In this document: in pieces, positions 3,255 through 35,324 of the stretch
How the letters are laid out: each line of letters begins with the position of its first letter
Position numbering within the stretch: the first letter of the stretch is position 1
Assembly: GCA_963675245.1 (NCBI GenBank)
Contig: OY775910.1
Location: forward strand, 1,120,001 to 1,184,000
Direction of reading: 5' to 3'
From: Acholeplasmataceae bacterium
GTDB taxonomy: Bacteria; Bacillota_I; Bacilli_A; Acholeplasmatales; Acholeplasmataceae
Length of the DNA: 64,000 bases
Translations under genes and position numbers: made by a program
Notes under the pieces: generated by a model
The model's input: only the letters and a program-made list of their open reading frames with translations
The model's database searches: none
What the model was told of the DNA's origin: nothing

Positions 3255-6200
3255 GTGGATTTATTGAAAAAACAAGGTTTATATAATCCTATTTTCGAGC
3301 ATGATGCTTGTGGTATAGGAGTTATAGCTAATATAGATGGACATAAAGATCATCAAACCATTGATGATGCTTTGTCTGTGATTGAAAACCTCAATCACAG
3401 AGGCGCATCAGGATCTGATATGGTCACTGGAGATGGGGCAGGTATATTAATCCAAATGCCTCACTCTTTTTTTAATGACGTCTTATCATTTGATGTCCCT
3501 GATCAAGGAAAATATGCCGTTATCCAATCCTTCCTTTCACAAAATAGATCTATTGCAGAAAAACAATTAAAAATCATTGAAGTCCTATTACCTCAATATA
3601 ACTATCAATTACTAGGTATTAGAGAAGTACCTTCAGCTAAACATATACTAGGTAAGATAGCCATCGATTCTATGCCTACAATGATGCAGCTATTTATCAC
3701 ATCACGTCAATCATTTAAAGATAATGAAGCATTTGAATTTGATTTATATAAGTTAAGAAAGAATATCGAAAACCATTTTAAGAGATATAACAAAAATGAG
3801 TATTTCTATATTGCTTCACTAAGTAGTAAAACAATCGTTTATAAAGGGATGCTGACATCCCTACAATTAAGACATTTCTTTATTGACCTACAAGACTTAA
3901 GGTTTGAATCTGCGTTTGCGTTAGTGCATGCCCGTTTTTCAACCAATACATTTCCATCATGGCATCGCGCTCATCCGAACCGCTACATGATTCACAATGG
4001 CGAGATTAATACCATTAGAGGAAATGTTAACTGGATGAAATCCAGACAAGATCGTTTAAAGAAAGATAATCAAGAGATTCAAGATATGTTACCGATCATC
4101 GATGAAACAGGGTCTGATTCATCGATGTTTGATAATGCCTTAGAATTCCTACATATATCTGGTAGAAGTTTACCTCACGCACTCATGATGATGATTCCTG
4201 AACCATGGGAAAACAATTTAGAGATGAATGAAGAGAAGAAAGCCTTCTATGAATTCCATAACTTCTTAATGGAACCATGGGAAGGACCTGCAGCGATTGC
4301 TGCATCCGATGGTGATGTCATTGTCGCTTCCTTAGACCGTAATGGCTTACGTCCTTCTAGATACACCATCACAAAAGATAACCGTCTCATTCTTGCGAGT
4401 GAAGTGGGTGTTCTAGATATTAAACCAGAAAACATCTTACAAAAGGGAAGACTCATGCCAGGTAAGATGCTTGTTGTAGATCTTCATCAGAAACGAATCA
4501 TTTCTGATGAAGAGATGAAAATGTCACTAGCGAAGAAACATGACTATCAAAGTTATATCAATAAACATTTAATATCCTTAAAGGATTTTGAAACGACACC
4601 GCAAGCAAGACCGATTGAAAAGGCGAATCTTATCACGCTTCAAAAAGCTTATGGATACACCAATGAAGACATTGAAAAGATCATCACACCCATGGCGGAA
4701 TATGGTAAAGAACCGATTGGCTCCATGGGCTTTGACGCGCCACTTGCCATACTATCTAGTAAACCCCATTTGCTTTATAATTATTTTCAACATACTTTCG
4801 CACAAGTCACGAATCCTCCTTTAGATGGTTTAAGAGAAAAGATTATCACCTCATCCAAAGTGATGATGGGTAATATGGGACATCTCTTAAATCCGTTTAG
4901 AGAGTCTAAATACGCAACCTTATTAGATGGACCCATTATCACCAATGGTCAACTCGCGGATATTAAATCATTTGACAATAAAATCTTTAAAACAAAGACG
5001 ATATCGACCTTATATCCTAAAGCGTATGGGACATCCTATTTAAAAAAACATTTAGATCATATGTTTGAAGAAGTGCTTGATGCTTATAATGATGGTTATA
5101 ATCTATTTATCTTATCCGATAGAGGATTAGATAAAGATCATGTATCAGCACCGATGTTGCTCGCTGTTGCAGGATTACATCATTTCTTTATCAATGAAGA
5201 AATCAGAACGGAAGTCACCATTATATGTGAAACAGCAGATGCACGTGAAGTACATCACTTTGCTGCTTTATTTGGCTATGGTGTGACACTGATTAACCCA
5301 TACCTTGCTTATGAAACGTTAAAAGATTTAACGTATTCAGGTAAACTTAAAAACCATACACACTATACACCCGCAAAACATCAATACATCAAAGCGTCTG
5401 TGGATGGCATGATGAAGATCTTATCGAAGATGGGCATTTCCACTTTAAGAAGTTATCATGGCACGCAACTATTTGAAGCGGTAGGTATTCATGAAGATGT
5501 CATTAACGCATACTTCACTGGTACTGTCACGAGAATTGGTGGCCTAAACTTAGAAGATATTGCACGTGAGATGCATAAGCTTCATGATCTTGCTTATAAA
5601 GCAGAAGAACCACTTGATTTAGGGAGCAGGTACTTTAGAAAGAAACATGGTGAACCACATCTCATCACACCTCAAGTCGTTAATCTCATGCATAAAGCTG
5701 CGAGAGAAAACGATCTTGATGCTTATCAAAAAGTCACTAAAGAACTTTATGACATGGCACCTGTTTATCTACGCCACTTATTAGCCTTTAAAGAACATTC
5801 AAATCCGATAGACATTCATGACGTAGAACCAGTTGAAAGTATTTTAAAAACCTTTAAATCTGGTGCGATGAGTTATGGCTCTATTTCACAAGAAGCGCAT
5901 GAGACAGTCGCGATCGCGATGAACCGGATGCAGGCGAAATCTAATTCAGGTGAAGGTGGCGAAGATCCTTCTAGATATGAAGCGAAAGATCCACGCTTTA
6001 ATAAATCATCAGCGATTAAACAAATCGCTTCAGGTCGATTCGGTGTGACCTTAGATTATTTAATTCACGCGAAAGAAATTCAAATCAAAATGGCACAAGG
6101 TGCGAAACCTGGTGAAGGTGGTCATCTTCCTGGTGAAAAGGTGTATCCATGGATCGCGAAAACGAGACATGCGAAACCTTGGGTGAGTTTGATCTCTCCA

Positions 6201-7655
6201 CCACCGCATCATGATATCTATTCCATTGAGGATTTAGCAGAACTCATTTATGATTTAAAGAAAGCGAATCACGATGCGAAGATTAGTGTGAAACTCGTTT
6301 CGCAAATGGGTGTCGGTACGGTCGCGGTAGGGGTAGCTAAAGGATTCGCTGATAAGATCTTAGTGTCTGGTTATGATGGTGGAACTGGGGCTGCACCTTT
6401 AAGCTCTCTTCAACATGCAGGACTTCCTTGGGAGCTCGGACTTTCAGAAGTGCATCAAACGCTTCAATTAAATAAATTAAGACATAGAGTTATTTTAGAA
6501 ACGGATGGAAAACTATTAACGGGTCGAGATGTCGCGATTGCGGCAATCTTAGGAGCGGAAGAATTTGGGTTCGCAACACTCCCATTATTACTCGTCGGTT
6601 GTGTGATGCTTAGACGTTGTCATGAAAACACGTGTCCTGTCGGTATCGCGACACAAAATGAAGACTTAAGAAAGAAGTTTAAAGGTGAACCAGAACATAT
6701 CACTAACTATTTTCATTTTGTCGCGAATGAGTTGAGAGAGATTATGGCCTCATTAGGCGTAAGATCATTAAAAGAACTTGTTGGTAGAACGGACTTGTTA
6801 GGATTGAAAGACAATATTGAAAGTGATAAATTAAAGACCATCGATTTTTCAAAGATCTTACATCAATCAACGTCTACGCAAGAGACAAACCAGATGACAC
6901 AAGATACAGAAACATCGTTAGATGAAGAAGTACTCATGCCAATCATTCGGTCCCTTCCTCATCTTGATCAACCAAAAAACTATCAATTCAATATTATTAA
7001 CACCAATCGAAGTGTTGGTACATATGTCGGTTCTTATATGAAGAAGCATTATAAAGACACGTTAAATGATGATACATTAACGATTGACTTTAAAGGCTCA
7101 GCTGGTCAATCATTTGGGGCATTTCTTCCTAAAGGAATTACACTTCGTTTAGAAGGAGATGCGAACGATTATTTAGGTAAAGGTTTATCTGGAGGAAAGA
7201 TCGTCGTCAAACCATCTAAACATATGAGTTATAAACCTGAAGATAATATCATTATCGGTAATGTCGCTTTTTATGGTGCGACATCAGGGATTGGTTATAT
7301 TCGTGGTGTTGTCGGTGAAAGGTTCGCAGTTAGAAACTCTGGTGCGACCCTCATCGTCGAAGGTGTAGGTGATCACGCCTGTGAGTACATGACGGGTGGC
7401 ACAGTCATGATATTAGGTGAAACTGGTAGAAATATGAGTGCTGGTATGAGTGGTGGCACACTTTATGTCTACAACTTAGATAAACATAAACTTAATACAG
7501 CGATGGTTGAAGCAGTTGCCTTAGATGAGTCAGATGATAATTTCATTAAAGATATCCTAAAAGATTACATCATTAAAACAGAATCATCTTATGCTAAATC
7601 AATTTTAGAGACGTATCAATCATCTTCGTTTCATAAGATAACTGCCAAAGTTTAA
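3255..7655 (+). CDS. gltB: Glutamate synthase large subunit
   Basis: HDACGIG (N-terminal catalytic Cys), HARFSTNTFPSW, HNGEINT, MSYGSIS, QGAKPGEGGHLPG, and the 3Fe-4S motif CVMLRRCHENTC; 1466 aa. Confidence 0.97.
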   Translation: MDLLKKQGLYNPIFEHDACGIGVIANIDGHKDHQTIDDALSVIENLNHRGASGSDMVTGDGAGILIQMPHSFFNDVLSFDVPDQGKYAVIQSFLSQNRSIAEKQLKIIEVLLPQYNYQLLGIREVPSAKHILGKIAIDSMPTMMQLFITSRQSFKDNEAFEFDLYKLRKNIENHFKRYNKNEYFYIASLSSKTIVYKGMLTSLQLRHFFIDLQDLRFESAFALVHARFSTNTFPSWHRAHPNRYMIHNGEINTIRGNVNWMKSRQDRLKKDNQEIQDMLPIIDETGSDSSMFDNALEFLHISGRSLPHALMMMIPEPWENNLEMNEEKKAFYEFHNFLMEPWEGPAAIAASDGDVIVASLDRNGLRPSRYTITKDNRLILASEVGVLDIKPENILQKGRLMPGKMLVVDLHQKRIISDEEMKMSLAKKHDYQSYINKHLISLKDFETTPQARPIEKANLITLQKAYGYTNEDIEKIITPMAEYGKEPIGSMGFDAPLAILSSKPHLLYNYFQHTFAQVTNPPLDGLREKIITSSKVMMGNMGHLLNPFRESKYATLLDGPIITNGQLADIKSFDNKIFKTKTISTLYPKAYGTSYLKKHLDHMFEEVLDAYNDGYNLFILSDRGLDKDHVSAPMLLAVAGLHHFFINEEIRTEVTIICETADAREVHHFAALFGYGVTLINPYLAYETLKDLTYSGKLKNHTHYTPAKHQYIKASVDGMMKILSKMGISTLRSYHGTQLFEAVGIHEDVINAYFTGTVTRIGGLNLEDIAREMHKLHDLAYKAEEPLDLGSRYFRKKHGEPHLITPQVVNLMHKAARENDLDAYQKVTKELYDMAPVYLRHLLAFKEHSNPIDIHDVEPVESILKTFKSGAMSYGSISQEAHETVAIAMNRMQAKSNSGEGGEDPSRYEAKDPRFNKSSAIKQIASGRFGVTLDYLIHAKEIQIKMAQGAKPGEGGHLPGEKVYPWIAKTRHAKPWVSLISPPPHHDIYSIEDLAELIYDLKKANHDAKISVKLVSQMGVGTVAVGVAKGFADKILVSGYDGGTGAAPLSSLQHAGLPWELGLSEVHQTLQLNKLRHRVILETDGKLLTGRDVAIAAILGAEEFGFATLPLLLVGCVMLRRCHENTCPVGIATQNEDLRKKFKGEPEHITNYFHFVANELREIMASLGVRSLKELVGRTDLLGLKDNIESDKLKTIDFSKILHQSTSTQETNQMTQDTETSLDEEVLMPIIRSLPHLDQPKNYQFNIINTNRSVGTYVGSYMKKHYKDTLNDDTLTIDFKGSAGQSFGAFLPKGITLRLEGDANDYLGKGLSGGKIVVKPSKHMSYKPEDNIIIGNVAFYGATSGIGYIRGVVGERFAVRNSGATLIVEGVGDHACEYMTGGTVMILGETGRNMSAGMSGGTLYVYNLDKHKLNTAMVEAVALDESDDNFIKDILKDYIIKTESSYAKSILETYQSSSFHKITAKV

Positions 7656-7779
7656 CAATGAAAACACTTTCTTAACACATAATGTAGGAAATCAAAAAAA
7701 CATCCTTTTATTTACAGGTCATATACGATAAAATGTGTTCATATAAATCTATACAATTCATTATACGAGGTAATAGGCA

Positions 7780-8835
7780 ATGAAACTTTTTATCCCAGGA
7801 CCCGTCGATGTAAGACCAGAAGTACTTGACGCACTCCGTCACGAACAAATTAGTCATCGTAGTAAAGATATATCAATACTACAAGCACGTATTGAATCAA
7901 ACTTACAAAAAATATGGTATACAAAAAACGCAGTTCTTCTATCTTCGTCCTCTGGGACGGGTGCCATGGAAATGGCACTTCGTTCACTGACAAAGAAAAA
8001 GGCTGCGGTTTTTTCTTGTGGGGCATTTGGTGATCGCTTTTATGAGATTGCAACATATAATGCGTTAGATGTTGATTTTTACCGGTTTGATGATGGTAAA
8101 CCGATTGATCTAAATGTCTTTGAAGAAGTGTTAAATAAAGGGATATATGACACCATTACCGTTACCCATAATGAAACATCCACCGGTGTCATGAATGATT
8201 TAGATTCATTAAGTAAGATTTGGGGAAAACATCCAGAAGTGGTTGTTATCGTGGATGCTGTGTCAAGCTTCGCGGGTGTGAAAATCCCCGTTGATGACTT
8301 AAAGATAGATGTTTGTGTCGCGTCTTCTCAAAAAGCGTTAGGACTGCCTCCTGGGCTTGCTGTGTTATCTGCGAGTGATAAGGCAGTTAAACGTATGAAT
8401 GAAATTGGCTATCGTGGTTATTATCTTGACTTAAAACGTGTCTATGAAAAACACATCCAATCTCATCAGTATCCAACAACGCCTAATACCGCGTTAATGC
8501 ACGCGCTTGATGTGCAATTAGACTATATTGTGAATGTCGAGGGGATAGAAAACAGATTTAAGCGTCATAAGGAGCTTGCTGAGTACACGAGAGATTGGGT
8601 AAACAAACATTTTGAATGTTTTGCAGAAGAGGGTTACCGGTCAGATACAGTCACGTCAGTCATTAATTCAAAAGGGTTAGACTTAGATGACGTTAAAGCG
8701 ACACTCAAAGCGAAGGGTTACATATTTTCTCAAGGTTATGGAAAATACAAACAAAGAGCCTTTAGAATTCCACATATGGCTGATCGGACGTTAGATGACT
8801 TAAAAGCGTATTTAAAGGAGATTGAATCCTTATGA
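7780..8835 (+). CDS. Class V PLP aminotransferase (alanine-glyoxylate family; probably the phosphoserine aminotransferase here)
   Basis: LFIPGP, THNETSTGV, VDAVSS, SSQKALGLPPG (PLP lysine). Overlaps the serA-like gene by ATGA. Confidence 0.85.
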   Translation: MKLFIPGPVDVRPEVLDALRHEQISHRSKDISILQARIESNLQKIWYTKNAVLLSSSSGTGAMEMALRSLTKKKAAVFSCGAFGDRFYEIATYNALDVDFYRFDDGKPIDLNVFEEVLNKGIYDTITVTHNETSTGVMNDLDSLSKIWGKHPEVVVIVDAVSSFAGVKIPVDDLKIDVCVASSQKALGLPPGLAVLSASDKAVKRMNEIGYRGYYLDLKRVYEKHIQSHQYPTTPNTALMHALDVQLDYIVNVEGIENRFKRHKELAEYTRDWVNKHFECFAEEGYRSDTVTSVINSKGLDLDDVKATLKAKGYIFSQGYGKYKQRAFRIPHMADRTLDDLKAYLKEIESL

Positions 8836-10559
8836 TTAACATCTTATTAAATGATGGTTTAGAACAAGAAATCATTGATCAATTAAAAGCATTATATGAT
8901 GTCGAAGATCATCATTATCCAAAACCAGAATTATTAGAAAAAATAAAAGAAGTCGATATTATCGTCATTAGATCCAAAACGACCATTGATCAAGATGTCA
9001 TTGATGCAGCATTAGAAACAAACCAATTAAAGCTCATTATACGCGCTGGTGTTGGTGTCGATAACATTGATTGTAGGTATGCTGAATCAAAAGGCATTAC
9101 CGTGAGAAACACCCCTAAAGCGAGCACACAAGTGGTTGCTGAATTAACGTTATCCTTTATGCTCGCTTTATCAAGAAATATTTCATACGCGGACGCGTCC
9201 ATGAAACAAATGGCATGGGAGAAAAAAGCGTTAGTGGGTAGTGAGTTAAATGGTAAGACATTAGGGATTATCGGCTTTGGAAGAATTGGGAAGAAAGTCG
9301 CAGCATTCGCCTCGATCTTTGATATGCGTATCTTATTCTATGACGTGTATCCTGTGGAATCAGCATATGAACAAGTTGATTTAAATACCCTATATCAGGA
9401 AAGTGATTATATCACCTTACACGCACCTGCTCAAGATAAACCGTTTATTAATGAAGATGTATTAACCCTTTTAAAACCAGGTGTGAAGATCATTAACACA
9501 TCAAGAGGGTCTGCTATTGATGAAGACGTGTTGATGAAAGGGATTGATGAAGGGATTATTTCAGGTGCAGCCCTTGATGTCTATCAAACAGAACCTAATA
9601 GAAATGAAAAACTCACAACCTATCAAGATATCATTTTAACTCCTCATATTGGCGCGAATACATTGGAAGCGAGTAAACGTATTGGAGAAGAAGTATATGA
9701 CACAATCATTAAATTCATGGAGAGAAGAGAAATGCCTAAACGTCTGCAAGTAGGAATGCCAGTCTTAATGGAATATAAAACAATAGAAGAGAACATCGCT
9801 TTAGCCAAAAAGCTAAAACTTGACTTTATTGAACTTAATATGAACTTTTTATATTGTTATCCATCCAAATCATTAAGGGATAAACTAGAAAAAGTTCATC
9901 AAGAAGATGGCATCGGGTTTTCATTCCATTATTATGATAATATCGATATCTCCTCACCAAATGAAAACTATATGACATACCTTAAAGCAGATATGACCTT
10001 AATCGGTGAAACATTAAATGGTCTAATTCATAAAATGGTTCTACATATTGAACCAGGCTCATTTATGACCATCTTTAGTGAAAAACATTATGTCTATAAA
10101 TATGATGATGAATACGTTGAAAGAACCGTTAAGAATGTGAAGGAACTTCAAGATATCTTAGATCAATACGACATTATGATCGTCTTAGAAAACGTTCCGA
10201 TTCACCCGTATATGGAATCTCTTTATAAAGCCCTACAAGAGGCAGGTTTTCATTTTACATGGGACATTGGGCATGATGTCATTTATGAACATTATTTATA
10301 CTCAACCTTTAGAACAAAATATCATCTTGATGTGAGACATATGCATATGCATAATGTCTTAGATTATGCCGATCATCAACGACTCACATCAGGAAAATTA
10401 AAGATTAAAGAATATATCAATTACGCGATCAATCACAAACTCTCAGTGGTGATTGAAGTCAAAGATAAAGAAAACTTAGAAGAGTCTGTGAAATATCTTT
10501 ATGATTATTTGGAAGCAGTCGGTAATCAAGATGTAGAAGATAAGATTTGGACACCTTAA
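8832..10559 (+). CDS. D-3-phosphoglycerate dehydrogenase-like domain fused to a C-terminal xylose-isomerase/endonuclease-IV-like TIM barrel
   Basis: Residues 1-300: RAGVGVDNID, GIIGFGRIG, INTSRG, LDVY..EP, TPHIGA. Residues 300-575: FIELN, VLH, VLENV, WDIGHD, HMHMH, DHQ, VIEVK metal-ligand pattern. Confidence 0.85.
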   Translation: MINILLNDGLEQEIIDQLKALYDVEDHHYPKPELLEKIKEVDIIVIRSKTTIDQDVIDAALETNQLKLIIRAGVGVDNIDCRYAESKGITVRNTPKASTQVVAELTLSFMLALSRNISYADASMKQMAWEKKALVGSELNGKTLGIIGFGRIGKKVAAFASIFDMRILFYDVYPVESAYEQVDLNTLYQESDYITLHAPAQDKPFINEDVLTLLKPGVKIINTSRGSAIDEDVLMKGIDEGIISGAALDVYQTEPNRNEKLTTYQDIILTPHIGANTLEASKRIGEEVYDTIIKFMERREMPKRLQVGMPVLMEYKTIEENIALAKKLKLDFIELNMNFLYCYPSKSLRDKLEKVHQEDGIGFSFHYYDNIDISSPNENYMTYLKADMTLIGETLNGLIHKMVLHIEPGSFMTIFSEKHYVYKYDDEYVERTVKNVKELQDILDQYDIMIVLENVPIHPYMESLYKALQEAGFHFTWDIGHDVIYEHYLYSTFRTKYHLDVRHMHMHNVLDYADHQRLTSGKLKIKEYINYAINHKLSVVIEVKDKENLEESVKYLYDYLEAVGNQDVEDKIWTP

Positions 10560-10633
10560 ATTAAAAAAAATGTCAATTAGACACTTGAATGGTAAAATTG
10601 TTTCATAAAAATAACCTAAAGGAAAACTATATT

Positions 10634-11371
10634 ATGGTTAAAATATATGAGTTTTATACTGAGCTAAGAGACTCAAACCCCAAAATCTTTAGAACAATAC
10701 AAGTGATTTCCAAAATCACAGTAGCTGAATTTGTATATATTCTGTTATCGTTGTATGACATGCAAGCCACACACCTGTTTAAAGTCATTGTTCCAAAGGG
10801 ACAAACTCTCGTTGAAGCATATAAAAGAAAAATAGGGAATGACTTTGATGAAGTAACATTTAAAAATGAACATCCAGACATTTCTAATGTCAGATATCGA
10901 TATGAACTGCTTGATATCATTGATGATTTTCCAGAAAGAGAAAATGATGTCGTTTTAAACGTAACAAAAGAAAAGCTAAAACAAGCGATATCAATCATAG
11001 GAGAACAAATGGTATTATGGTATGACTTTGGGGATGATTGGTTTGTTGATATTAAACTCATCAATATTATTGAGACCGAAGATGATGTGATAACACCCAA
11101 TGTATTAAAAGGAGCAGGTTTTGGCATTATTGAAGACTGTGGTGGTTCATGGCGATTAAATGATATTATCATTGCATTTCAGAACAAAAAGGGGAAATTA
11201 TACAAGGAGATCTGTGATTGGCTAGATATAGATGATTTTGATTTTTCTAAATTTGATATTGATGAGATGAATAAAAGGCTACAAGTCATCCCTCAAATCT
11301 ATAAACGAAGTTATGAAAAAAAGATAGTACCTTCACAAGAAGAGATAGATTACATTGAAAGAAGATATTAA
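10634..11371 (+). CDS. Plasmid pRiA4b ORF-3 family protein
   Basis: LWYDFGDDWFVDIKL and GAGFGIIEDCGG motifs. The ATG at 10634 follows AAGGA; the ORF track start of 10589 is probably too long. Confidence 0.75.
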   Translation: MVKIYEFYTELRDSNPKIFRTIQVISKITVAEFVYILLSLYDMQATHLFKVIVPKGQTLVEAYKRKIGNDFDEVTFKNEHPDISNVRYRYELLDIIDDFPERENDVVLNVTKEKLKQAISIIGEQMVLWYDFGDDWFVDIKLINIIETEDDVITPNVLKGAGFGIIEDCGGSWRLNDIIIAFQNKKGKLYKEICDWLDIDDFDFSKFDIDEMNKRLQVIPQIYKRSYEKKIVPSQEEIDYIERRY

Positions 11372-11374
11372 CAT

Positions 11375-11414
11375 AAAAAAGTTCCTATCGGAGAAATCTC
11401 CAAGGAACTTTTTT
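11375..11414. terminator. Bidirectional terminator-like hairpin
   Basis: AAAAAAGTTCCT...AGGAACTTTTTT with an inner GGAGA/TCTCC stem. Confidence 0.75.
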
Positions 11415-11523
11415 GATTGATCCAACAAACCATCTAATAAATTAAAAAACTGAAATTAAAGTAAAAAGGATGTTATATGAATAGTATATGATAGAGCACT
11501 TTTTGTGATTGGAGGTTTATTGA

Positions 11524-12495
11524 TTGAACATACATCCGTTAGATTCATTAATCATGCAATATCTTGCAGAAAAAGATATTACAAGAGGTTCATTCGAATT
11601 ATATGACACCATTTTGAAACAATTCACGACATACCTAAAAGAACATCACATACTATTCGCGAAGACAAGTGATATCATCAATTATCGACAATGGAAAAGA
11701 AATCAAGGGTATTCTACGCGTTGGATTTATCATCAAATGAGTGCAATTAAGGGACTCTATCAATATTTAAAATATAATCAAAAAAGATTAAATCTATCAG
11801 AAGAATATGCAAACGACATTACGGAACTCATAAAAAACGAACGTATTAAAAAAGGTATTTCAAAACCAATATTAACGATTGATCAAGCAAAACATTTAAT
11901 ATTATGTAGTAAAGAAAACCGAAAGTATATTTGGCATTATCGTGATCACGCAATGCTTTATCTGATGTTAACGACAGGTATGAGAAGTGTTGAATTAAGA
12001 CGTGCTAAAAAGAAAGACTTAAAAATAATTGAAAACCAATCAATATTATATATACAAGGTAAAGGTAGACAAATAGCAAATGAGTATGTCAAAATCACGC
12101 CAAGTGTTAAGCGTGCTATTGATGAATATCTAAAGAAAAGAAAAGATAAGAATCCTTATCTATTTGTATCACATTCTAAGCATACGGATACGCCATATCT
12201 GTCAAGAACATTTTTCACTAGAATGCTTAAACGTGTATTATCATCATGTGATTTAACTTATACAAAGATAAAACCCCACTCTTTAAGACATACTGCTGCC
12301 ACATTTAACCTACTTAGAGGTGGTTCCCTAGAACAGACCAAACAGTTCATGAGACACACTAATATATCTACGACACTTGTCTATGCTCATCATGTGAAAC
12401 GATTGAAGGATGACTCGGTGAATCAAATTGAAAACTATATTTTAAATGAAGATATATATCATTATCATGATGAATACATCATCATTGATCTATGA
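11524..12495 (+). CDS. Tyrosine recombinase (Xer/integrase family), paralog A
   Basis: TGMRSVE (R), GKG (K), HSLRH, RHTNISTTLVY (H, Y); N-terminal SAM-like domain; GGAGG RBS before the TTG start. Confidence 0.92.
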   Translation: MNIHPLDSLIMQYLAEKDITRGSFELYDTILKQFTTYLKEHHILFAKTSDIINYRQWKRNQGYSTRWIYHQMSAIKGLYQYLKYNQKRLNLSEEYANDITELIKNERIKKGISKPILTIDQAKHLILCSKENRKYIWHYRDHAMLYLMLTTGMRSVELRRAKKKDLKIIENQSILYIQGKGRQIANEYVKITPSVKRAIDEYLKKRKDKNPYLFVSHSKHTDTPYLSRTFFTRMLKRVLSSCDLTYTKIKPHSLRHTAATFNLLRGGSLEQTKQFMRHTNISTTLVYAHHVKRLKDDSVNQIENYILNEDIYHYHDEYIIIDL

Positions 12496-13448
12496 GAGAT
12501 GAGGAAAAGATAATGGAAGCACATCCGCTAAAAGAATTATGCGAACGATATATTTTAGATCATAATTTTTCTGAATCGACTATCAATTCGTATCGAATAG
12601 TATTTAAGAAATATATAAATTTTTTGATAGAACATGATATTGAATACGCGAAAACAAGCGATGTTATTAAATACCGTGAAAATAAGAGGAAAAAAGGTTA
12701 TTCGAGCCACTATATCTATGTGCACATCTCTGCGTTAAAAGGGTTATATCGATATTTAAGACATAATCGATCTCGTTTTAATCTACGAGATGATTATGCA
12801 TATGATATTATGATGCCTATAAAAAATGAACGAATTAAGTATCATATAAAAAAACCAATTTTAACGATTGAACAAGCTAAACATATGATCCTTCATACGA
12901 AGAGAAATAGAACGTCAATTTGGCAATACCGCGATCACGCAATTATTTATTTGATGTTAACTGCTGGCATTAGAAGATATGAAATTAAAGAAGCGAAAAA
13001 AGAAGATTTTCAAATAGTTCATGGTGAATGTTTGTTATATATAAGACATAATAACGAAAGAACAAATGATGATTTTGTTAAAATCGCACCGGGCGTCAAT
13101 GATGCAATTAACGATTATTTATATATGCGTAAAGATGACAACCCCTATTTGTTTGTGACGACTAAAAACACGTCACCTAACCAACATCTATCTAGAACAT
13201 TCTTTAGAGAGATGTTTAGAAGAGTCATTAAAACATGTGGCTTAGAAAATATGGGAATTACACCACACTGTTTAAGACACACAGCGGGAGTGATCAACCT
13301 ACTTAGAGGCGGTTCATTAGAACAGACAAGACAACTTTTAAGACATAAAGATATTAAATCGACCATCATCTATAAAGAGCATATCGAACGGATGAATGAT
13401 GATTCAGAATTACAAATCGAAAAATTCATACTCGGAGACAAGGGTTAA
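12492..13448 (+). CDS. Tyrosine recombinase, paralog B (translationally coupled to A)
   Basis: AGIRRYE, HCLRH, RHKDIKSTIIY. ATGA overlap with paralog A and extensive similarity to it. Confidence 0.9.
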   Translation: MRDEEKIMEAHPLKELCERYILDHNFSESTINSYRIVFKKYINFLIEHDIEYAKTSDVIKYRENKRKKGYSSHYIYVHISALKGLYRYLRHNRSRFNLRDDYAYDIMMPIKNERIKYHIKKPILTIEQAKHMILHTKRNRTSIWQYRDHAIIYLMLTAGIRRYEIKEAKKEDFQIVHGECLLYIRHNNERTNDDFVKIAPGVNDAINDYLYMRKDDNPYLFVTTKNTSPNQHLSRTFFREMFRRVIKTCGLENMGITPHCLRHTAGVINLLRGGSLEQTRQLLRHKDIKSTIIYKEHIERMNDDSELQIEKFILGDKG

Positions 13449-13571
13449 GTTTCAAATGTAAAAGATAACATCCTAAATTGATTAAAATATCTATAAATAT
13501 TAGATTTCAAACAAATAAAACGTTTAAAACTAAATTTTTATGGTAAAATACAATTGGTGGGAGGTTATAAC

Positions 13572-14732
13572 ATGAAAATTTTAAAAATTAGAGTGTCAGG
13601 TTTTAAGTTATTAGAGGATAACTTTGAAATTGATTTTTTGAGTAAAGCGAGAGTAGGTGCGAATGATAAAGAAGATGAAATCATCGAATATTATAACAAT
13701 CTATACATACCAACAACGATTGTTTTTACAGGGAAGAATGCGAGCGGTAAATCATCTGTTTTATCACTATTAACATTTGTGAATGAATTGCTGAATGAAG
13801 GGCGTATTAGATTTAATGTGCTTGATTTCAGAGATGATCTCATGCATTTAGATCTATTTTTTGCATTAGATAATAAAATTTACAATTACAAAACAGATAT
13901 CATTAAACCTGAAACAAAATTACTTGATAAAGCCAATTATTGTAGTTTTAGAAATGAACGATTACTGGATAAAAAATATTCTAAAACCTATGGGAAAAAT
14001 ATTCTCAACAATGATTTTAATAAAGTTACTTTATATAAATCAGATGTTGGAGATACATCATTACTTTATAAACTTGTAGCGAGAAAATCACTATTTATAA
14101 ATTCAAATAACTGGTTTCACGATACTTCAATTGAGTCAATATTTAAGTTGTTTGAAATGTTTGATGTTAATGAAAATTTGATGATAAAAATTGCCAGATT
14201 ATTTGATGATAGCATTGATAAATTCACGTATGATAAGAATAAAAGGTTATATACCTTGTCATTAAAGGGGTTAGGAAAGAAAAATTATAGTGAATCTGAA
14301 ATGCGGATTTTATTATCAGACGGTACGATTAAAGGAATGACGATGTTTGGTCTAATTATTGCAGTATTAAAAACTGGAGGAAGTTTAATGATTGATGAAA
14401 TTGAGAATAGTTTTCATAAAAATTTAGTTGAAAATATCATCATGATTTTTAATGATAAACGGATCAACAAAAATAAAGCGAATCTTTTATTTAGCACCCA
14501 TTATGTTGAAATTCTTGACATCTTTAGAAGAAGAGACAATATCTTTATCACATCAAAAAAAGATGGTTATATTACCAATTGTAATCTATATGAAGACTAT
14601 GATGAAAGAATCGAATTATCCAAAAGTAATCAATTTAACAATAACACCTTTGGTACCCTTATCAATTATGATCAATTGATGGCATTAAAGAAAGAACTCA
14701 TCAATGAAATACCTGGTTTTAATAGAGGGTAA
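13572..14732 (+). CDS. AAA_21/AbiEii-like ABC-type ATPase (RloA/AbiLi-like)
   Basis: Walker A GKNASGKS, signature LSDGT, Walker B IDEIENSFH, H-loop FSTH. ATG at 13572 follows GGAGG. Confidence 0.85.
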   Translation: MKILKIRVSGFKLLEDNFEIDFLSKARVGANDKEDEIIEYYNNLYIPTTIVFTGKNASGKSSVLSLLTFVNELLNEGRIRFNVLDFRDDLMHLDLFFALDNKIYNYKTDIIKPETKLLDKANYCSFRNERLLDKKYSKTYGKNILNNDFNKVTLYKSDVGDTSLLYKLVARKSLFINSNNWFHDTSIESIFKLFEMFDVNENLMIKIARLFDDSIDKFTYDKNKRLYTLSLKGLGKKNYSESEMRILLSDGTIKGMTMFGLIIAVLKTGGSLMIDEIENSFHKNLVENIIMIFNDKRINKNKANLLFSTHYVEILDIFRRRDNIFITSKKDGYITNCNLYEDYDERIELSKSNQFNNNTFGTLINYDQLMALKKELINEIPGFNRG

Positions 14733-15237
14733 CACAGATAAAGCACTTATTGAGATATTAATGGGTAAGGGGATATTTAAAATAAGTGCAGATGATATGT
14801 TGGACTTGCGACCACATCAAAAAAGACAGATTGATACGTATTTAGCAGCGTTAATTAGACAGTTGAATGCCGATGAAAAGGTTAAAATCATTAGAATTGG
14901 GGATAAAATATCTGACAACTTGCGTATACCAAAAGATATCATAAGCAAAATTGATTCAATCATTAAGTATTGCACAAAGCCAGAATTTGAAATGTTACTT
15001 ATCATGGCGGAAAACATGACAGATGTGTATGAAAAACAAAAAAGTACAGTAAAACCGAAAACATTTGCTAAAACGTTTATTGTGTTTAATAAAAAAAGGT
15101 ATAATAATACGCCTGATTGGGTACATATGTATTTCGACAAATGGCTTAATAAAGACATCAAAGAATTACTTAAAGCGTATAAGCAATATAAGAAACATGA
15201 AACAGATGAGATGTATCTTTATGATTTAGTAAAGTGA
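14704..15237 (+). CDS. RloB/TOPRIM-like protein partnered with the ATPase
   Basis: N-terminal LVLIEGNTD, a central IIRIGD strand and CTKPEFEMLL (compare RloB CEG..E and NPCFELW). Overlaps the ATPase gene. Confidence 0.6.
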   Translation: MKYLVLIEGNTDKALIEILMGKGIFKISADDMLDLRPHQKRQIDTYLAALIRQLNADEKVKIIRIGDKISDNLRIPKDIISKIDSIIKYCTKPEFEMLLIMAENMTDVYEKQKSTVKPKTFAKTFIVFNKKRYNNTPDWVHMYFDKWLNKDIKELLKAYKQYKKHETDEMYLYDLVK

Positions 15238-15254
15238 TATTAACGCATGACATC

Positions 15255-15290
15255 AAACTAGCATCACTCACTAAAGTGTGCTAGTTTTTT
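15255..15290 (+). terminator. Intrinsic terminator
   Basis: AAACTAGCA...TGCTAGTTTTTT. Confidence 0.75.
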
Positions 15291-15306
15291 ACTTAAGTTT
15301 TACAGG

Positions 15307-15404
15307 TTTGTTCGATTTACAAACAAAATGGTGTTATTACCTTGTAATAAGGTGTGAATTGATGTAAAATGATGTCAAACAAAATTATTCAGTTATCGAA
15401 CAAA
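15307..15404 (+). promoter_or_regulatory. Predicted polysaccharide-operon promoter bracketed by 10-bp inverted repeats
   Basis: TTTGTTCGAT (15307-15316) and ATCGAACAAA (15395-15404). Between them TTGTAA (15342-15347), 17 bp spacer, TAAAAT (15365-15370), and the palindrome TTATTAC-CTT-GTAATAA over the -35. Confidence 0.55.
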
Positions 15405-15423
15405 GATAACCAGAGGTGACGAT

Positions 15424-15636
15424 ATGCCAGTTTATGAATTATATGTCAATGAAGAAACTGATGAATTTGAAGTGCGTGATGAGTCCTGTCCTAAAAGTAA
15501 AAATAAATCAGAAAAGTCATTGAAACTGATCGATCGACTAGATGCTGATATAACGATTGAAGAAGCGTATAAACGTTATTATCTTGCATATCCACACAGA
15601 AAAGTTGTGATTGCGGATTGTTGTAAGAGAAAATAG
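15424..15636 (+). CDS. Small hypothetical protein (70 aa, C-terminal CC), first gene of the glycan operon
   Basis: GAGGTG RBS, ATG start, 21 bp gap to the next gene. Confidence 0.65.
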   Translation: MPVYELYVNEETDEFEVRDESCPKSKNKSEKSLKLIDRLDADITIEEAYKRYYLAYPHRKVVIADCCKRK

Positions 15637-15657
15637 TTATATCAATGATCGGAGGAT

Positions 15658-16287
15658 ATGAGATTGAATCATAATCTATTTTTCAAACCCACACCCTTAT
15701 ATAAAGAGTTTCTCATATTAGATCTTATTGAAAAAGATCCTAACATCACTCAACGTGTCATGAGTGATGCTATTGGTGTGTCTGTTTCTATGATTAATAG
15801 TTATTTAGAATCTTATGAAAAAGAAGGTTATATTTTAAGGAAATATCATTCTACAAAAACGGTTGAATATTATGTCACCAAAAAAGGAATTGAAAGAAGA
15901 AAATTACTAAATATTTGGTATTTACAATCTTCTCATGGTGTTTATATGTCTGCAAAAAATAATATTATTATGTTCTTAAACCAAATCATTGAGCGTGGTT
16001 TTAAGAACATTTTATTATATGGTGCGGGGGAGGTTGCTGAAATCATGCTTCAAACGATGAACGACGATCAAACTTTACCTTTGAAAGTATTAGCAGTGAT
16101 TGATGATGACATTGGCAAAAAGAACCAGGTAATTGTTAATTTACCAGTTATTTCAATTGAAGATATATCAAAATATAATATTGATGGTATTTTGGTTTCA
16201 AGTTATAAACATCATATCGCAATCCATCAACATTTAAAAAATATTAATTATCCAGAAGAAAAAATTGTCAACTTCTTTGACAACTGA
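15658..16287 (+). CDS. EPS-associated MarR-like winged HTH regulator with a C-terminal Rossmann-like domain
   Basis: ITQRVMSDAIGVSVSMINSYL...YYVTKKG wHTH; C-terminal LLYGAGEVA...VIDDD. Confidence 0.8.
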   Translation: MRLNHNLFFKPTPLYKEFLILDLIEKDPNITQRVMSDAIGVSVSMINSYLESYEKEGYILRKYHSTKTVEYYVTKKGIERRKLLNIWYLQSSHGVYMSAKNNIIMFLNQIIERGFKNILLYGAGEVAEIMLQTMNDDQTLPLKVLAVIDDDIGKKNQVIVNLPVISIEDISKYNIDGILVSSYKHHIAIHQHLKNINYPEEKIVNFFDN

Positions 16288-16300
16288 TAGAGGAAAAAAT

Positions 16301-16912
16301 ATGTACTTTATATTTAAAAGAATGTGTGATACTGTCATAGCTTTTATAGGATTAATCGTCCTTTCACCAATATTTCTTGTATTGATGATTCTTATAAAGA
16401 TTGATTCAAATGGCCCCATTCTATTTAAACAAAAAAGAATTGGTAGACACAAAAAGCATTTCAATATCTTGAAATTTAGAACAATGAGAATAGATACTCC
16501 GAAAGATGTTCCCACACATCAACTCGAAAATCCAGATCAATGGATTACTAAAATGGGTAAATTCTTAAGAAAAATAAGTTTAGATGAATTGCCTCAAATT
16601 ATCAATATCCTAAAAGGTGATATGTCAATTGTTGGTCCTAGACCTGCATTATGGAATCAAGATGATTTGGTTACCGAAAGAGATAAATATGATGTATACA
16701 AGTTATATCCCGGGTTGACAGGTTATGCACAAATTAATGGTAGAGATGAGTTACCTATACCTGAAAAAGCTTCACTTGATGGTTTTTATGTAGAACATAT
16801 TGGATTGTGTATTGACATAAAAATATTCTTTGGAACAATCATTAAAATTTTTAAATCAGAAGGTGTCGTTGAAGGTGGCACGGGAACACTTGAAAAGAAG
16901 GACAGACAATAG
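16301..16912 (+). CDS. Priming phosphoglycosyl transferase (Bac_transf sugar transferase)
   Basis: KRMCD, FKQKRIG, KFRTM, SLDELPQ, GDMSIVGPRP, PGLTGYAQINGR. ATG at 16301 follows GAGGA. Confidence 0.93.
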   Translation: MYFIFKRMCDTVIAFIGLIVLSPIFLVLMILIKIDSNGPILFKQKRIGRHKKHFNILKFRTMRIDTPKDVPTHQLENPDQWITKMGKFLRKISLDELPQIINILKGDMSIVGPRPALWNQDDLVTERDKYDVYKLYPGLTGYAQINGRDELPIPEKASLDGFYVEHIGLCIDIKIFFGTIIKIFKSEGVVEGGTGTLEKKDRQ

Positions 16913-16921
16913 GAGTTACAT

Positions 16922-17776
16922 ATGAAACGTGTTTTAATTACTGGTGCAAACAGTTATATTGGTACTAATGTAGAAAAATGGTTAATGAGAGAACCAGACA
17001 AATATTATGTTGAAACATTAGATATGCAGAATTCTAAATGGAGAGAGTTTAATTTCTCAAATTTTGATGTTGTAATTCATGTGGCAGGAATAGCCCATGT
17101 TTCAACTAAAAAAAATATGAAAGACTTGTATTTTAAAGTAAATAGAGACTTAACTATTGAAACTGCTGAGAAAGCTAAAGCTGATGGTGTAAAACAATTT
17201 CTTTTTATGAGTAGTATTATTGTATATGGTGATAGTAGTATTAGAAAAAGAATTATTGACAATAAAACAGTTCCTACACCAAGCAATTTTTATGGGCAAA
17301 GTAAATTATTTGCAGAACAAGGGATTAAGAATTTAGAATCAGATGACTTTAAAATAGTTATTTTGAGACCACCTATGATTTATGGAAAAGGATCTAAAGG
17401 TAACTTTCATAGATTAGTGAATCTAATTTTGAAAATTCCAGTGTTTCCTGAATTTAACAATGAGAGAAGTATGCTTTATATAGATAATTTATGTGAATTC
17501 ATTAGATTAATGATAATTAATAAAGAAAGTGGTTTGTTCTTTCCACAAAATAGTGAATATGTGAAGACAAGTGATATGGTTAGATTGATCTCAGAAATCT
17601 ATATGAAGAAGATTAAATTTACACGAGTTTTTAATTGGATAATTAGATTGATGTTTGTAATAAATTCTGTAAATAAAGTCTTTGGTAATTTGGTTTATGT
17701 AAAATCCATAAGTGAGTACAAAGAGGATTATAGTATTAGGAGTTTTAGAGAATCAATTGTACATACACTAGAATAG
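16922..17776 (+). CDS. NAD-dependent nucleotide-sugar epimerase/dehydratase
   Basis: ITGANSYIG, YGQSK (YxxxK), LRPPMIYG. Confidence 0.9.
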   Translation: MKRVLITGANSYIGTNVEKWLMREPDKYYVETLDMQNSKWREFNFSNFDVVIHVAGIAHVSTKKNMKDLYFKVNRDLTIETAEKAKADGVKQFLFMSSIIVYGDSSIRKRIIDNKTVPTPSNFYGQSKLFAEQGIKNLESDDFKIVILRPPMIYGKGSKGNFHRLVNLILKIPVFPEFNNERSMLYIDNLCEFIRLMIINKESGLFFPQNSEYVKTSDMVRLISEIYMKKIKFTRVFNWIIRLMFVINSVNKVFGNLVYVKSISEYKEDYSIRSFRESIVHTLE

Positions 17777-17805
17777 TTTAAATAAGAGCGAACAAAGGTG
17801 ATTAT

Positions 17806-18969
17806 ATGAAAAAAGCATTAGTGATGGCTTCGGTTGCTTCGATGATTGATTTGTTTAATATGGAAAACATTAAAATACTGAGAGATTTGGGTTTTGATGT
17901 TCATGTTGCTTGCAATTTTAAATTTGGAAGTATAACTAGTCAAAAACGTGTCAATGAGTTCCGGGTTGAATTAGAATCTAGTGGAATAAAAACATTCCAA
18001 TTACCTGTTCCTAGAAGAATATCAGCGTTTAGTGATATTATAAAATCCTTTAAATTAATGAGACAATTATGTCAAGATAATAGTTATCAAATTGTTCATT
18101 GCCATTCCCCAATTGGTGGCGTCATTGCTAGATTTGCATGTAAAAATCAGAGAAAAAATGGCACAAAAATCATTTACACAGCTCATGGATTTCATTTTTT
18201 TAAAGGAGCTTCAATAAAAAATTGGATGATTTATTATCCAGTTGAAAAATTTCTTGCAAAATATACAGATATATTAATTACTATGAATGAAGAGGATTAT
18301 AAAACAGCAAACAAGTTCAAGTCTACAACAGTTAAATACGTTCCTGGAATAGGAGTTGATACAGATGAAATCAAGAATGTTAAAGTTGATAGAGTATCAA
18401 AGAGATTAGAATTTGGAATAAAATATAATGATTTCATTCTACTTAGTGTTGGACAACTATCTAAGAGAAAAAATCACAAAGTTATAGTTAATGCTCTATC
18501 GAAAATTACAGATGAAAAGGTAAAGTTATTAATTTGTGGGTTAGGAGAACTCGAAAACTATTTAAGTGATTTGGTAAAGCAATTAAACTTAGAAGAAAGA
18601 GTTGTATTTGCTGGATATCGAAATGATATAAAGGAACTATTATATATAGCTGATTGCTTTGTCTTTCCTTCTTTACAAGAAGGATTACCTGTAGCTTTGA
18701 TGGAGGCAATGTCAGCTGGGCTTCCTGTAGTTTGTTCAAAAATCAGAGGGAATACAGATTTAATTGAAAATGGAAAAGGTGGGTTTTTAGTTGATTCACA
18801 AGATGTTGGGGGTTTTGCAAAGGCACTAAGTGATATAATAAATGATAAAAAAATAAGTAAGCAGATGAGCGCGTATAACTTGACTGAAATTAATAAATTT
18901 GATTCAAAGTCTGTTAATAAAATTATGAAGCAAATCTATGTGGATATTGATAAAAAAATTGAGTTTTAA
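17806..18969 (+). CDS. GT4 glycosyltransferase
   Basis: HCHSPIGG, YTAHGFHF, FPSLQEGLPVALMEAM. Confidence 0.92.
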   Translation: MKKALVMASVASMIDLFNMENIKILRDLGFDVHVACNFKFGSITSQKRVNEFRVELESSGIKTFQLPVPRRISAFSDIIKSFKLMRQLCQDNSYQIVHCHSPIGGVIARFACKNQRKNGTKIIYTAHGFHFFKGASIKNWMIYYPVEKFLAKYTDILITMNEEDYKTANKFKSTTVKYVPGIGVDTDEIKNVKVDRVSKRLEFGIKYNDFILLSVGQLSKRKNHKVIVNALSKITDEKVKLLICGLGELENYLSDLVKQLNLEERVVFAGYRNDIKELLYIADCFVFPSLQEGLPVALMEAMSAGLPVVCSKIRGNTDLIENGKGGFLVDSQDVGGFAKALSDIINDKKISKQMSAYNLTEINKFDSKSVNKIMKQIYVDIDKKIEF

Positions 18970-34201: not shown

Positions 34202-34207
34202 TACAAG

Positions 34208-35323
34208 ATGATAGATACCATTAAATTTTATGAATTTTTAAAATCTCAAGACGTAAACTTTTTCACTGGTGTACCAGATTCACTACTCAAACAAATTTGT
34301 TCATGCATTTCTGATAAAGAAAGCGATAATCACATTATCGCAGCTAATGAAGGAAATGCGGTTGGTTTAGCGACAGGTTATCATCTTGCGACTGGAAAAG
34401 TACCATTAGTATATTTACAAAACTCGGGTCTAGGTAACACTGTTAATCCTTTAATTTCACTTGCATCAGATACTGTATATTCTATTCCGATGTTGCTTAT
34501 GATTGGGTGGAGAGGTGAACCAGGAGTTAAAGATGAACCTCAGCATATTAATCAGGGTGCTGTGACAGAAGAATTATTAAAAACAATGGATGTCAATTAT
34601 GAAGTTTTATCTTTTGATTTAGAAGAAGCTATTGATCAAACTAAAAAACTTTTGGAATTGGCTACTATAAATAATAAACCAACAGCCATTCTAATCCGTA
34701 AAGACACTTTTAGTAATTATTCATTTAAAAATAATACTCAATATGAGAGCACAATAACAAGGGAAACGGTTTTAGAAGTAATTTTAAAAAACTCAAGTGA
34801 AAAAGCGTATATTTTTTCTACAACTGGTAAAACTTCTCGCGAAGTCTTTGAATTAAGAGAAAAACTTAAGCAATCACATAATAGAGATTTTCTTACTGTT
34901 GGTTCTATGGGACACACATCGAGTATTGCATTAGCATTTTCTAAATATAATTCAAGTAATGTAATATGTATTGATGGAGATGGTGCTTTACTCATGCACA
35001 TGGGATCACTTCCAATCAATTCTCAATATTCCAATACTAATTTTAAATATATTTTGATTAATAATTATGCACATGAGTCTGTTGGTGGTCAAAAAACAAT
35101 TGCCAATAAGATTGATTTTCTTAAATTATTTGACTCTGTTGGGTTTAAATATGTCAAAAGTGTATCTTCTTTAGAAGAACTTACAGATGTTCTGCAATCA
35201 AAAGAATTTAAAGATAATAATTTTGCTCTAGAAGTATTGGTTAAGTTGGGTTCTAGAAGTGACTTAGGCAGACCAACAATAAGTCCTCAGCAAGGTAAGA
35301 AAAATTTAATGGGGACTGTTTAG
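34208..35323 (+). CDS. aepY: Phosphonopyruvate decarboxylase
   Basis: GVPDSLL, ANEG, QNSGLGN, GWRGEPGVKDEPQH, GSMGH, DGDGALLMH (ThDP motif); directly after aepX. Confidence 0.95.
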   Translation: MIDTIKFYEFLKSQDVNFFTGVPDSLLKQICSCISDKESDNHIIAANEGNAVGLATGYHLATGKVPLVYLQNSGLGNTVNPLISLASDTVYSIPMLLMIGWRGEPGVKDEPQHINQGAVTEELLKTMDVNYEVLSFDLEEAIDQTKKLLELATINNKPTAILIRKDTFSNYSFKNNTQYESTITRETVLEVILKNSSEKAYIFSTTGKTSREVFELREKLKQSHNRDFLTVGSMGHTSSIALAFSKYNSSNVICIDGDGALLMHMGSLPINSQYSNTNFKYILINNYAHESVGGQKTIANKIDFLKLFDSVGFKYVKSVSSLEELTDVLQSKEFKDNNFALEVLVKLGSRSDLGRPTISPQQGKKNLMGTV

Positions 35324-35324
35324 T

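Follow-up and report, generated by a model that had tools for sequence, protein, structure and literature searches.

The two genes analysed here, yrA and yrB, lie in tandem in a stretch of 64,000 nucleotides from an Acholeplasmataceae bacterium (NCBI GenBank assembly GCA_963675245.1, contig OY775910.1, positions 1,120,001 to 1,184,000 of the forward strand), which we call the window; all positions below are counted from its first nucleotide. The yrA-yrB pair is a self-contained accessory operon of two paralogous XerA/XerD-like tyrosine recombinases. One partner has a complete catalytic set and the other a catalytic pocket that is eroded across its clade, both genes are under purifying selection, and the operon holds a fixed position upstream of a surface-glycan operon, amid defence and toxin-antitoxin cargo. 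Our tentative reading, to which we give somewhat less than an even chance, is an integrative island that accretes cargo and has its anchor at the glycan promoter, with the pair as its recombination module. It is our preferred reading because the patchy presence, the strict position, the cargo on both sides and the decayed tandem copies fit site-specific integration.

Two paralogous recombinases with unequal catalytic sites

An earlier note on this DNA, made from its letters and translations, had described two open reading frames (ORFs) that overlap by ATGA. This was borne out. The junction reads ctATGAgag, in which the ATG of yrB overlaps the TGA of yrA; the overlap is not universal in orthologues, where intergenic gaps of 3-83 nt also occur. 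The two products are identical at 152 of 309 positions (49%, 0 gaps, E 9e-114 by BLASTP), and all seven blocks that had been listed as shared (AKTSD, IKNERIK, KPILTI.QAKH, YRDHA..YLMLT, NPYLFV, LSRTFF and NLLRGGSLEQT) are present in both. YrA and YrB match PF00589 above the cut-offs (E 5e-21 and 5e-16, respectively) and also PF02899. Each has the catalytic C-terminal domain and the N-terminal core-binding (SAM-like) domain of the tyrosine recombinase superfamily. An AF2 model of YrA (pLDDT, the predicted local distance difference test score, 82) gave XerA, Cre, XerH and Tn1549-Int as top folds, and the nearest relatives of the pair by sequence and fold are 4a8e, 5hxy, 1a0p and XerH 5jjv.

The active sites of the two proteins have fared differently. 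In YrA, R154, K180, K190, H252, R255, H278 and Y287 are invariant in 32 sequences, and the catalytic set R, K, H, R, H, Y is unchanged in 32/32; the GKG(R/K) turn is, like these residues, invariant or nearly so in alignments of 22 and of 32 sequences. The window copies of both proteins keep R, HxxR, H and Y, as had been claimed, and the GKG turn is gone from YrB, which has IRHNNER where YrA reads IQGKGRQ. The loss of this turn, first seen as RHNN against GKG, holds family-wide, but the catalytic-lysine role assigned to it is uncertain because the canonical lysine column is not a lysine in YrA (profile alignment, archaeal XerA). Among 21 YrB sequences, eight have S, T or K in place of R-I, five have Y or N in place of H-II, about eight have lost K190, and essentially all are without the GKG turn. 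H-III and the tyrosine are retained in 21/21, and R-II is only nearly invariant in a 29-sequence alignment of YrB.

We placed the family in a quick maximum-likelihood tree with support from the SH-like approximate likelihood ratio test (SH-aLRT). The whole yrA/yrB family stands on a long branch apart from the other four recombinases of the genome (support 99). Twenty of the 21 YrB sequences form one clade (support 99) nested among the YrA sequences; yrA and yrB arose by one ancient duplication, which we count, like the asymmetry under selection, in favour of the island. The zrk7-type pair groups apart from these, in a clade with one single-copy relative, and this suggests that a second duplication took place independently. 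Ratios of nonsynonymous to synonymous substitution (dN/dS, NG86 method) over eight locus pairs were 0.05-0.13 for yrA and 0.09-0.23 for yrB, and the low values of yrB include a clade that has neither R-I nor H-II. Thus, both genes are under purifying selection.

The earlier note had proposed a two-subunit, possibly asymmetric recombinase. The operon, the comparative asymmetry and the selection on both genes stand; we infer the formation of a heteromer, in which YrA would act as the catalytic subunit and YrB would probably serve as the DNA-binding or architectural half. A complex prediction of YrA with YrB gave a score of 0.02 against a mark of 0.32, which counts neither for nor against binding.

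Patchy distribution and a fixed place beside the glycan operon

We surveyed 307 genomes of the order, counting a family member at E ≤ 1e-45. Only 25 genomes carry one and 282 do not; the pair is present in two of the ten genomes of the window's genus, its own included. Among the best 120 of 366 homologous proteins at E ≤ 1e-20, the named source organisms are Acholeplasma, Paracholeplasma and metagenome-assembled genomes (MAGs) of Acholeplasmataceae or Firmicutes, and the genome-collection contigs with the pair are titled Izemoplasma-like, Acholeplasma, Paracholeplasma or related MAGs. The family is restricted to Mycoplasmatota of the Acholeplasmatales type, among them Izemoplasma-like genomes. 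As a separate observation, four contigs with a Mycoplasmatota-type locus (L026, L027, L020 and L031; L and G numbers are our handles for loci and genomes) are filed under Saccharibacteria, Alphaproteobacteria, Bacillales and Erysipelotrichaceae, and are probably mis-binned or mislabelled.

The position of the pair is strict. All 20 genome-collection loci with enough flank have the order yrA, yrB, a MarR-like regulator gene, 0-3 genes, a Bac_transf gene and glycan genes, all on one strand. Among 68 close metagenome loci, this order recurs in 23 that extend 1.5 kb or more downstream, and in nine shorter ones. In eight of the 68 no MarR gene was reached in the BLAST table; one of these, L076, carries the promoter and the start of the MarR gene on inspection, and the others carry cargo beyond yrB. 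Of the 25 genomes with a family member in the order survey, 21 have the MarR gene on the same strand within 4.4 kb downstream; in G088 it is 28 kb away, and three assemblies, all fragmented, showed no MarR gene. These surveys of homologous pairs (20/20 and 21/25) strongly support the link to polysaccharide loci that the earlier note had proposed to look for. The MarR-type glycan head itself occurs in 44 of the 307 genomes, 22 of which have no family member. Single-copy relatives that are only 39-45% identical hold the same position.

Defence cargo and decayed copies

In most loci examined, the DNA flanking the pair consists mostly of defence or toxin-antitoxin genes, mainly co-oriented with it, and such an island is the most consistent neighbour of the pair. 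The neighbours named in the earlier note (a pRiA4 ORF3 gene, an ATPase and, from 15658, the glycan operon) were recovered by Pfam and PADLOC matches. The ATPase matches AbiLi of PADLOC (E 6.3e-37). Its 177-aa partner had been labelled TOPRIM, a label that we could not confirm, with no match in Pfam, NCBIfam or PADLOC. Homologues of the window cargo (64% and 59% identical) are located close to the glycan head in G038 and next to yrA fragments in L135. The pRiA4_ORF3 family adjoins yrA in L133 and is nearby in L083 and L120. The zrk7-type genome has CBASS-like SMODS with NUDIX, AAA_21 with RloB, and Fic as cargo. Other loci carry AbiE pairs, AAA_21 with RloB or a small ORF, Thoeris-like TIR, SAVED/CD-NTase, AbiGi and Abi_2, and further cargo includes MqsA/SecB, RelB/Fic, HigB, zeta toxin, a reverse transcriptase, a helicase-nuclease and fragments of serine recombinases.

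Cargo is also found within the module. It stands between yrB and the 3' palindrome clearly in the window and in L125, and the same slot looks occupied in L086, whose palindrome has one mismatch per arm, and in L025, whose palindrome is degenerate; L076 has one cargo between yrA and yrB. Extra truncated copies of yrA are present in L026, L074 and L135, and the repeated unit begins 4-20 nt 5' of the leader motif.

The upstream defence islands of L025 (6354-7961), L077 (4870-5205), L098 (3453-5084) and L106 (3290-3895) contain a reverse transcriptase and whole or fragmentary serine-recombinase genes, so more than one recombination system visits the region.

Empty sites and mosaic identity

In the closest relative, G006, the glycan locus occupies the same site in the chromosome but the pair is missing. 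Identity of G006 to the window is 84% for the serA-like gene, 88% for DegV and 79% for MarR. DNA homology ends at the stop codon of the serA-like gene (10555) and resumes at 15307, at the start of box P1; the 4.75-kb segment 10556-15306, whose first gene is the pRiA4_ORF3 gene, is missing from G006. In Acholeplasma G045, a 6.9-kb island of cargo, truncated yrA, yrB and more cargo corresponds to a 0.39-kb intergenic region in G044, and no target duplication is visible at the edges of this island.

Recombinases and regulator do not always share one history of identity. The recombinases of L090/L129 and L092/L093 are 77-90% identical and their MarR proteins just 63-70%; for L014/L030 the relation is reversed. 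The block shared by L090 and L129 (80-100% identical) runs from the leader to about 180 nt into the MarR gene, and their upstream cargo differs. Spearman correlations between the identity matrices of yrA, yrB and MarR were moderate at best (0.47, 0.48 and 0.15) and favour none of the readings over the others. The earlier suggestions that the pair moves itself or exchanges glycan loci would rest on this mosaic identity and on the patchy distribution.

Sequence elements flanking the operon

Table 1. Features of the window around the recombinase pair.
Feature	Position	Strand	Details
pRiA4_ORF3-family gene	10589..11371	+	PF07929, E 5.7e-30; directly 5' of the pair
Recombinase-operon leader	11453..11507	+	AAGTAAAAAG; 11-bp stem, TAnnAT loop, T-run, then ribosome-binding site
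yrA (ORF A)	11524..12495	+	TTG start, 323 aa; tyrosine recombinase, catalytically complete
yrB (ORF B)	12492..13448	+	ATG start, 318 aa; paralogous partner of yrA, catalytic pocket eroded across the clade
Cargo slot	13554..15237	+	AbiLi-like AAA_21 ATPase 13554-14732 and 177-aa ORF 14704-15237, between yrB and the 3' palindrome
27-bp palindrome and T-run	15258..15290	.	CTAGCAT-N13-GTGCTAG in the window; operon terminator, candidate recombinase core site
Glycan-operon promoter region	15308..15403	+	Box P1 TTTGTTCG-N-AACAAA 15308-15330
Glycan promoter elements	-35 TTGTAA 15342-15347; -10 TAAAAT 15365-15370; leader box P2 ATTCAnnnnnCGAACAA 15387-15403	+	Alignment of 14 loci
Glycan-operon head	15424..16912	+	70-aa Cys-rich ORF 15424-15636; MarR-like winged helix-turn-helix protein 15658-16287; Bac_transf initiating transferase 16265-16912

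The AAGTAA of the leader (within AAGTAAAAAG) is invariant in 22/22 sequences, and seven of the 11 stem pairs show compensatory change. In diverged pairs the shared homology begins near the leader motif. The leader looks like a candidate promoter/attenuator or promoter-proximal terminator that would form the left edge of the module.

At the other end, the palindrome CTAGCAC-N13-GTGCTAG with its T-run is found just 3' of yrB, or of its cargo, in about 40 loci, a number in which some contigs appear twice because they belong to two collections. The arms are 13 nt apart except in L103/L118 (12 nt) and L114 (14 nt), and the centre is variable and often not self-complementary. In the four glycan heads that have no pair, the strict pattern was not matched, and the sequences upstream of their MarR genes showed no such palindrome. 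In the window's genome the palindrome is single-copy; three other matches, with up to one mismatch allowed in each arm, fall in the range of 2-10 expected after shuffling. The palindrome is certainly placed to terminate the recombinase operon, and because its geometry is fixed we also regard it as a candidate core site. An Rfam search of 10500-16500 gave 0 matches at E ≤ 1.

The promoter region beyond the palindrome also occurs in loci without the pair (L064 and L067). Since boxes P1 and P2 are present where the pair is absent, they belong to the glycan operon and probably to its regulator; the region probably serves as operator for the MarR-like protein, or else as an antitermination leader. 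With its palindromic box P1, the region is highly conserved across two orders, with or without recombinases (L014, L017, L019, L064, L067 and others), and the boxes lie 85-95 nt apart. A similar leader box precedes an epimerase gene in L038 (6425-6441).

Search for rearrangements

No circles, inversions or duplications of an attachment (att) site, such as the proposal of an active recombinase in the earlier note would lead one to seek, were found in contigs, repeat searches or locus comparisons. Searches for repeats in 9500-17000 and in the whole window revealed nothing that links the flanks of the pair, and a 13-mer search in 13 loci gave nothing consistent. Two candidates were set aside. A direct repeat of 18/20 nt (10572-10591 and 14850-14869) is located within a gene and was attributed to chance, and the 6-bp TCAAAC at both edges of the window cargo is too short to count as evidence or as a footprint.

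Public sequencing data consisted of four runs, taken as Logan contigs, which drop rare variants. A contig of 38,367 nt covers 6001-17400 of the window without differences in three runs (X1-X3) of one sample and shows a single arrangement. One joint of depth 2, from 11781 to 18837, was seen in run X2. The X1-X3 contig ends at 17400 inside the epimerase gene, and over much of the glycan locus past this point hardly any depth remains, which could reflect strain heterogeneity of that locus.

A possible integrative island and its alternatives

The operon lies between the conserved leader hairpin and the 27-bp palindrome, always at the inner edge of the defence/toxin-antitoxin island and directly 5' of the glycan promoter. 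If the pair is the recombination module of an integrative island, that island would use the glycan-promoter spot as its attachment site, new units would arrive beside the promoter, and older units would decay into the upstream defence island. Such a logic would be comparable to that of Tn554, SE, GInt and RIT elements or of an integron-like platform. A bolder form of the idea seems unlikely to us: an as yet undescribed, integron-independent platform of Mycoplasmatota, in which a catalytic tyrosine recombinase, joined in a heteromer to a catalytically dead one, would capture and stack anti-phage and toxin-antitoxin cassettes at the palindrome by the glycan promoter, and so physically couple receptor variation with the repertoire of immune genes. 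The surface glycan is likely a phage receptor.

Several observations weigh against the integrative island. The edges of the islands have no att-type direct repeats or target duplications, the genome holds a single copy of the palindrome with no partner site found, and no well-supported joint touches the pair in the contigs of the public runs. Accessory genes like Xis, TnpC or Srap were not identified. The slot between yrB and the palindrome has no cargo in most loci, and the right ends of the decayed yrA copies fall at variable points inside yrA. Conservation of the palindrome may reflect just a shared terminator in a generally conserved regulatory region. Relatives with an empty site, for which the earlier note had proposed to compare genomes, do exist (G006 and G044), but in both comparisons the whole intergenic region is replaced and not cleanly interrupted; this keeps alive both ordinary homologous exchange through the flanking genes and a host function. 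The deeply diverged single-copy relatives at the same position could equally mean such a long-standing host function.

A domesticated pair would serve the host either by helping variants of the glycan locus to be exchanged or captured, or mainly by regulating or insulating the operon through DNA binding, with YrB contributing little or nothing to catalysis. The long-kept position, the strong purifying selection on both genes and the mosaic identity in L090/L129, L092/L093 and L014/L030 all agree with it, including the L090/L129 block that ends inside the MarR gene. On the other hand, this breakpoint resembles that of ordinary homologous recombination, the family is missing from half of the glycan heads, and the complete catalytic set of YrA in every sequence argues for real strand exchange; we judge a host function to be unlikely on balance. 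A phase switch of the fimB/fimE type, in which the pair would invert the promoter or another segment and toggle the glycan operon, seems improbable. The gene order resembles fimB-fimE-fimS-fimA, TTGTTCG in P1 and CGAACAA in P2 make a 7-10-bp inverted repeat around the promoter, and both proteins have weak NCBIfam matches to tyrosine-type DNA invertases (E 3e-4 to 3e-3). However, the promoter segment is inverted in none of 29 distinct loci (28 ON and one with a variant -35 that is ON by eye), the boxes are also present in loci without the pair, longer inverted repeats between the flanks of the pair and the operon were not found, and the contigs of three runs have one orientation only, within the limit that rare variants are dropped. 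The promoter inversion put forward in the earlier note is thus disfavoured.

The pair might also be the leftover integrase genes of an old mobile element, now inactive and hitch-hiking in a variable region. That no att or partner sites were found would suit this, as would the truncated copies, but dN/dS is 0.05-0.23 for both genes over the eight locus pairs, the leader and the palindrome are conserved, and most full-length copies in the examined loci are intact ORFs. The copies that are not intact have a split yrB (L086, L089 and L126), an internal deletion (L031) or an in-frame stop in the first gene (G008 and G045). We therefore hold a defunct remnant to be very improbable. No close viral relatives speak for a phage integrase: nothing closer than 32% identity was found in 2.9 million viral contigs scanned, and no phage structural, phage replication or conjugation genes are among the Pfam hits in window 3255-54175, in line with what the earlier note had reported. 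The chance that the pair is the chromosome-dimer resolvase, an equivalent of XerC/XerD, is close to nil. Its best NCBIfam matches are indeed Xer models, but far under the cut-offs, with 118 and 112 bits against 220 for XerA, 108.8 (YrA) and 89.1 bits (YrB) against 329.6 for XerD, and 80-118 bits across Xer models. The complete genome of 1.63 Mb has six PF00589 genes; of those outside the pair, one encodes a true XerD (355.7 bits against the cut-off of 329.6) and another is XerC-like, at 309.5 bits. The pair is thus not the only one in the genome, reaches no equivalog score and shows no near-universal vertical presence, being absent from most genomes of the order. For these reasons we exclude the dimer resolvase, the scenario that the earlier note had named as its own refutation.

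The integrative island that we prefer would have practical consequences if the pair is active. It would be a compact two-protein recombination system, with one or two short palindromic sites, for bacteria that have few genetic tools. It would also explain the build-up of defence islands beside surface-glycan loci in Acholeplasma and Izemoplasma-like genomes, and would represent a natural tyrosine-recombinase heteromer with one subunit off catalysis, useful for the study of half-of-the-sites control.

Neighbouring genes

The glycan locus extends to 37061 and includes rml genes and a phosphoenolpyruvate (PEP)-mutase/phosphonate branch. This branch, at the end of the locus (32894-37061), consists of a cytidylyltransferase-PEP mutase fusion, a thiamine pyrophosphate-dependent decarboxylase and a fusion of a nucleotidyltransferase (NTP-transferase) with an iron-containing alcohol dehydrogenase (Fe-ADH), and is a decoration branch of the 2-aminoethylphosphonate type. 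At the head of the locus, the 70-aa Cys-rich ORF is conserved in G006 (L064, about 12177-12390). The MarR-like regulator has 209 aa and an N-terminal winged helix-turn-helix (HTH_24), and scores below the cut-off of TIGR04176 (MarR_EPS). Its C-terminal part has faint NCBIfam matches (E ~2e-3 to 3e-3) to models of NeuD/PglB/VioB, WcaJ and TrkA types. The regulator may sense a sugar nucleotide.

Upstream of the pair, at 8832-10559, a 575-aa fusion protein combines a serA-like D-2-hydroxyacid dehydrogenase with a TIM-barrel domain that resembles xylose isomerase; it is kept in G006 and G001. A second copy of this fusion in the genome is 47% identical and lies in a 1192-aa reading frame with one TAG. 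Downstream of the glycan locus, three paralogues of about 860-880 aa with a C-terminal EAL domain are encoded on the minus strand (39416-41992, 43579-46218 and 48359-50944), and an inverted repeat of 135 nt (45544-45678 and 48902-49036, 72% complementary) is located inside two of them.

Comparison with known systems

Full-text literature searches found no description of the pair, which is no proof that none exists. XerC/XerD and archaeal XerA have the same two-domain architecture, and XerC/XerD supplies the idea of a heterotetramer of two paralogues. Unlike them, the pair scores far under the Xer cut-offs, is patchy, has one catalytically eroded partner and lives in a host with its own Xer genes.

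FimB and FimE of E. coli are paralogues of about 48-49% identity, encoded in tandem directly 5' of the promoter of a surface-structure operon. They are proteins of about 200 aa without the N-terminal SAM-like domain, and act separately on an invertible element of 314 bp. The yrA-yrB pair resembles them as tandem paralogues 5' of a surface-operon promoter, but differs in the size of its proteins (about 320 aa) and in the single orientation of the 29 segments compared.

Integrons are built on IntI, attI and attC, and include chromosomal integrons with defence cassettes. Like them, the pair is a recombinase system anchored beside co-oriented accessory and defence genes, with a palindrome of conserved outer arms and variable centre. 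Unlike them, it has two recombinases, its genes are co-oriented with the cargo, and there is one palindrome per locus and no conserved palindrome after each cargo module. Both proteins score weakly on IntI models (E 1e-6 to 5e-8), with 32.6 and 33.9 bits on TIGR02249 against a cut-off of 265.

Integrative elements with several tyrosine recombinases are described, in the available part of the source, as having target specificity, translational coupling and partners without RHRY, such as Tfp and GinC (PMC10214605). They come closest to the pair in logic among known systems, and we count them as a precedent for the island. Tn554 (TnpA/TnpB/TnpC), SEs (IntA/Tfp/IntB/Srap), GInts and RITs, like the pair, have at least two recombinase-type genes in an operon at the end of a cargo unit. 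As far as that part of PMC10214605 goes, the likeness extends to gene coupling or overlap, to partners such as Tfp and GinC that do not have the catalytic motif, and, for the pair by inference, to target specificity. A two-recombinase operon beside cargo was indeed found here, in the window and in many loci, whereas the small third protein, the one large recombinase, the defined termini and the 6-bp footprint of Tn554, SE and GInt elements were not. The proteins of the pair are of equal size and are close paralogues (49%) of the simple XerA/XerD type, unlike those of Tn554, SE, GInt and RIT elements, and neither a third gene like TnpC or Srap nor terminal inverted repeats were found; in most loci the stretch from yrB to the palindrome has no conserved third gene. 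The cargo consists of anti-phage and toxin-antitoxin genes and not of resistance genes as in Tn554-type elements, the hosts are Mycoplasmatota, and kinship is known at the superfamily level only. Because the third protein, the termini and the footprint were not found, we do not assign the pair to the Tn554/SE/GInt/RIT families.

The logic of heteromeric or locus-anchored tyrosine recombinases linked to defence islands is known, and we regard the pair as a variant of it, one with a putative rearranging activity. A close parallel comes from small serine recombinases, which are markers genetically linked to diverse anti-phage systems according to the accessible part of PMC13552941. There the recombinases are of the serine type; here a tyrosine recombinase pair has a fixed anchor at the glycan operon. 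Like those serine recombinases, as they appear in that part of the source, the gene pair could be used as bait for new anti-phage genes.

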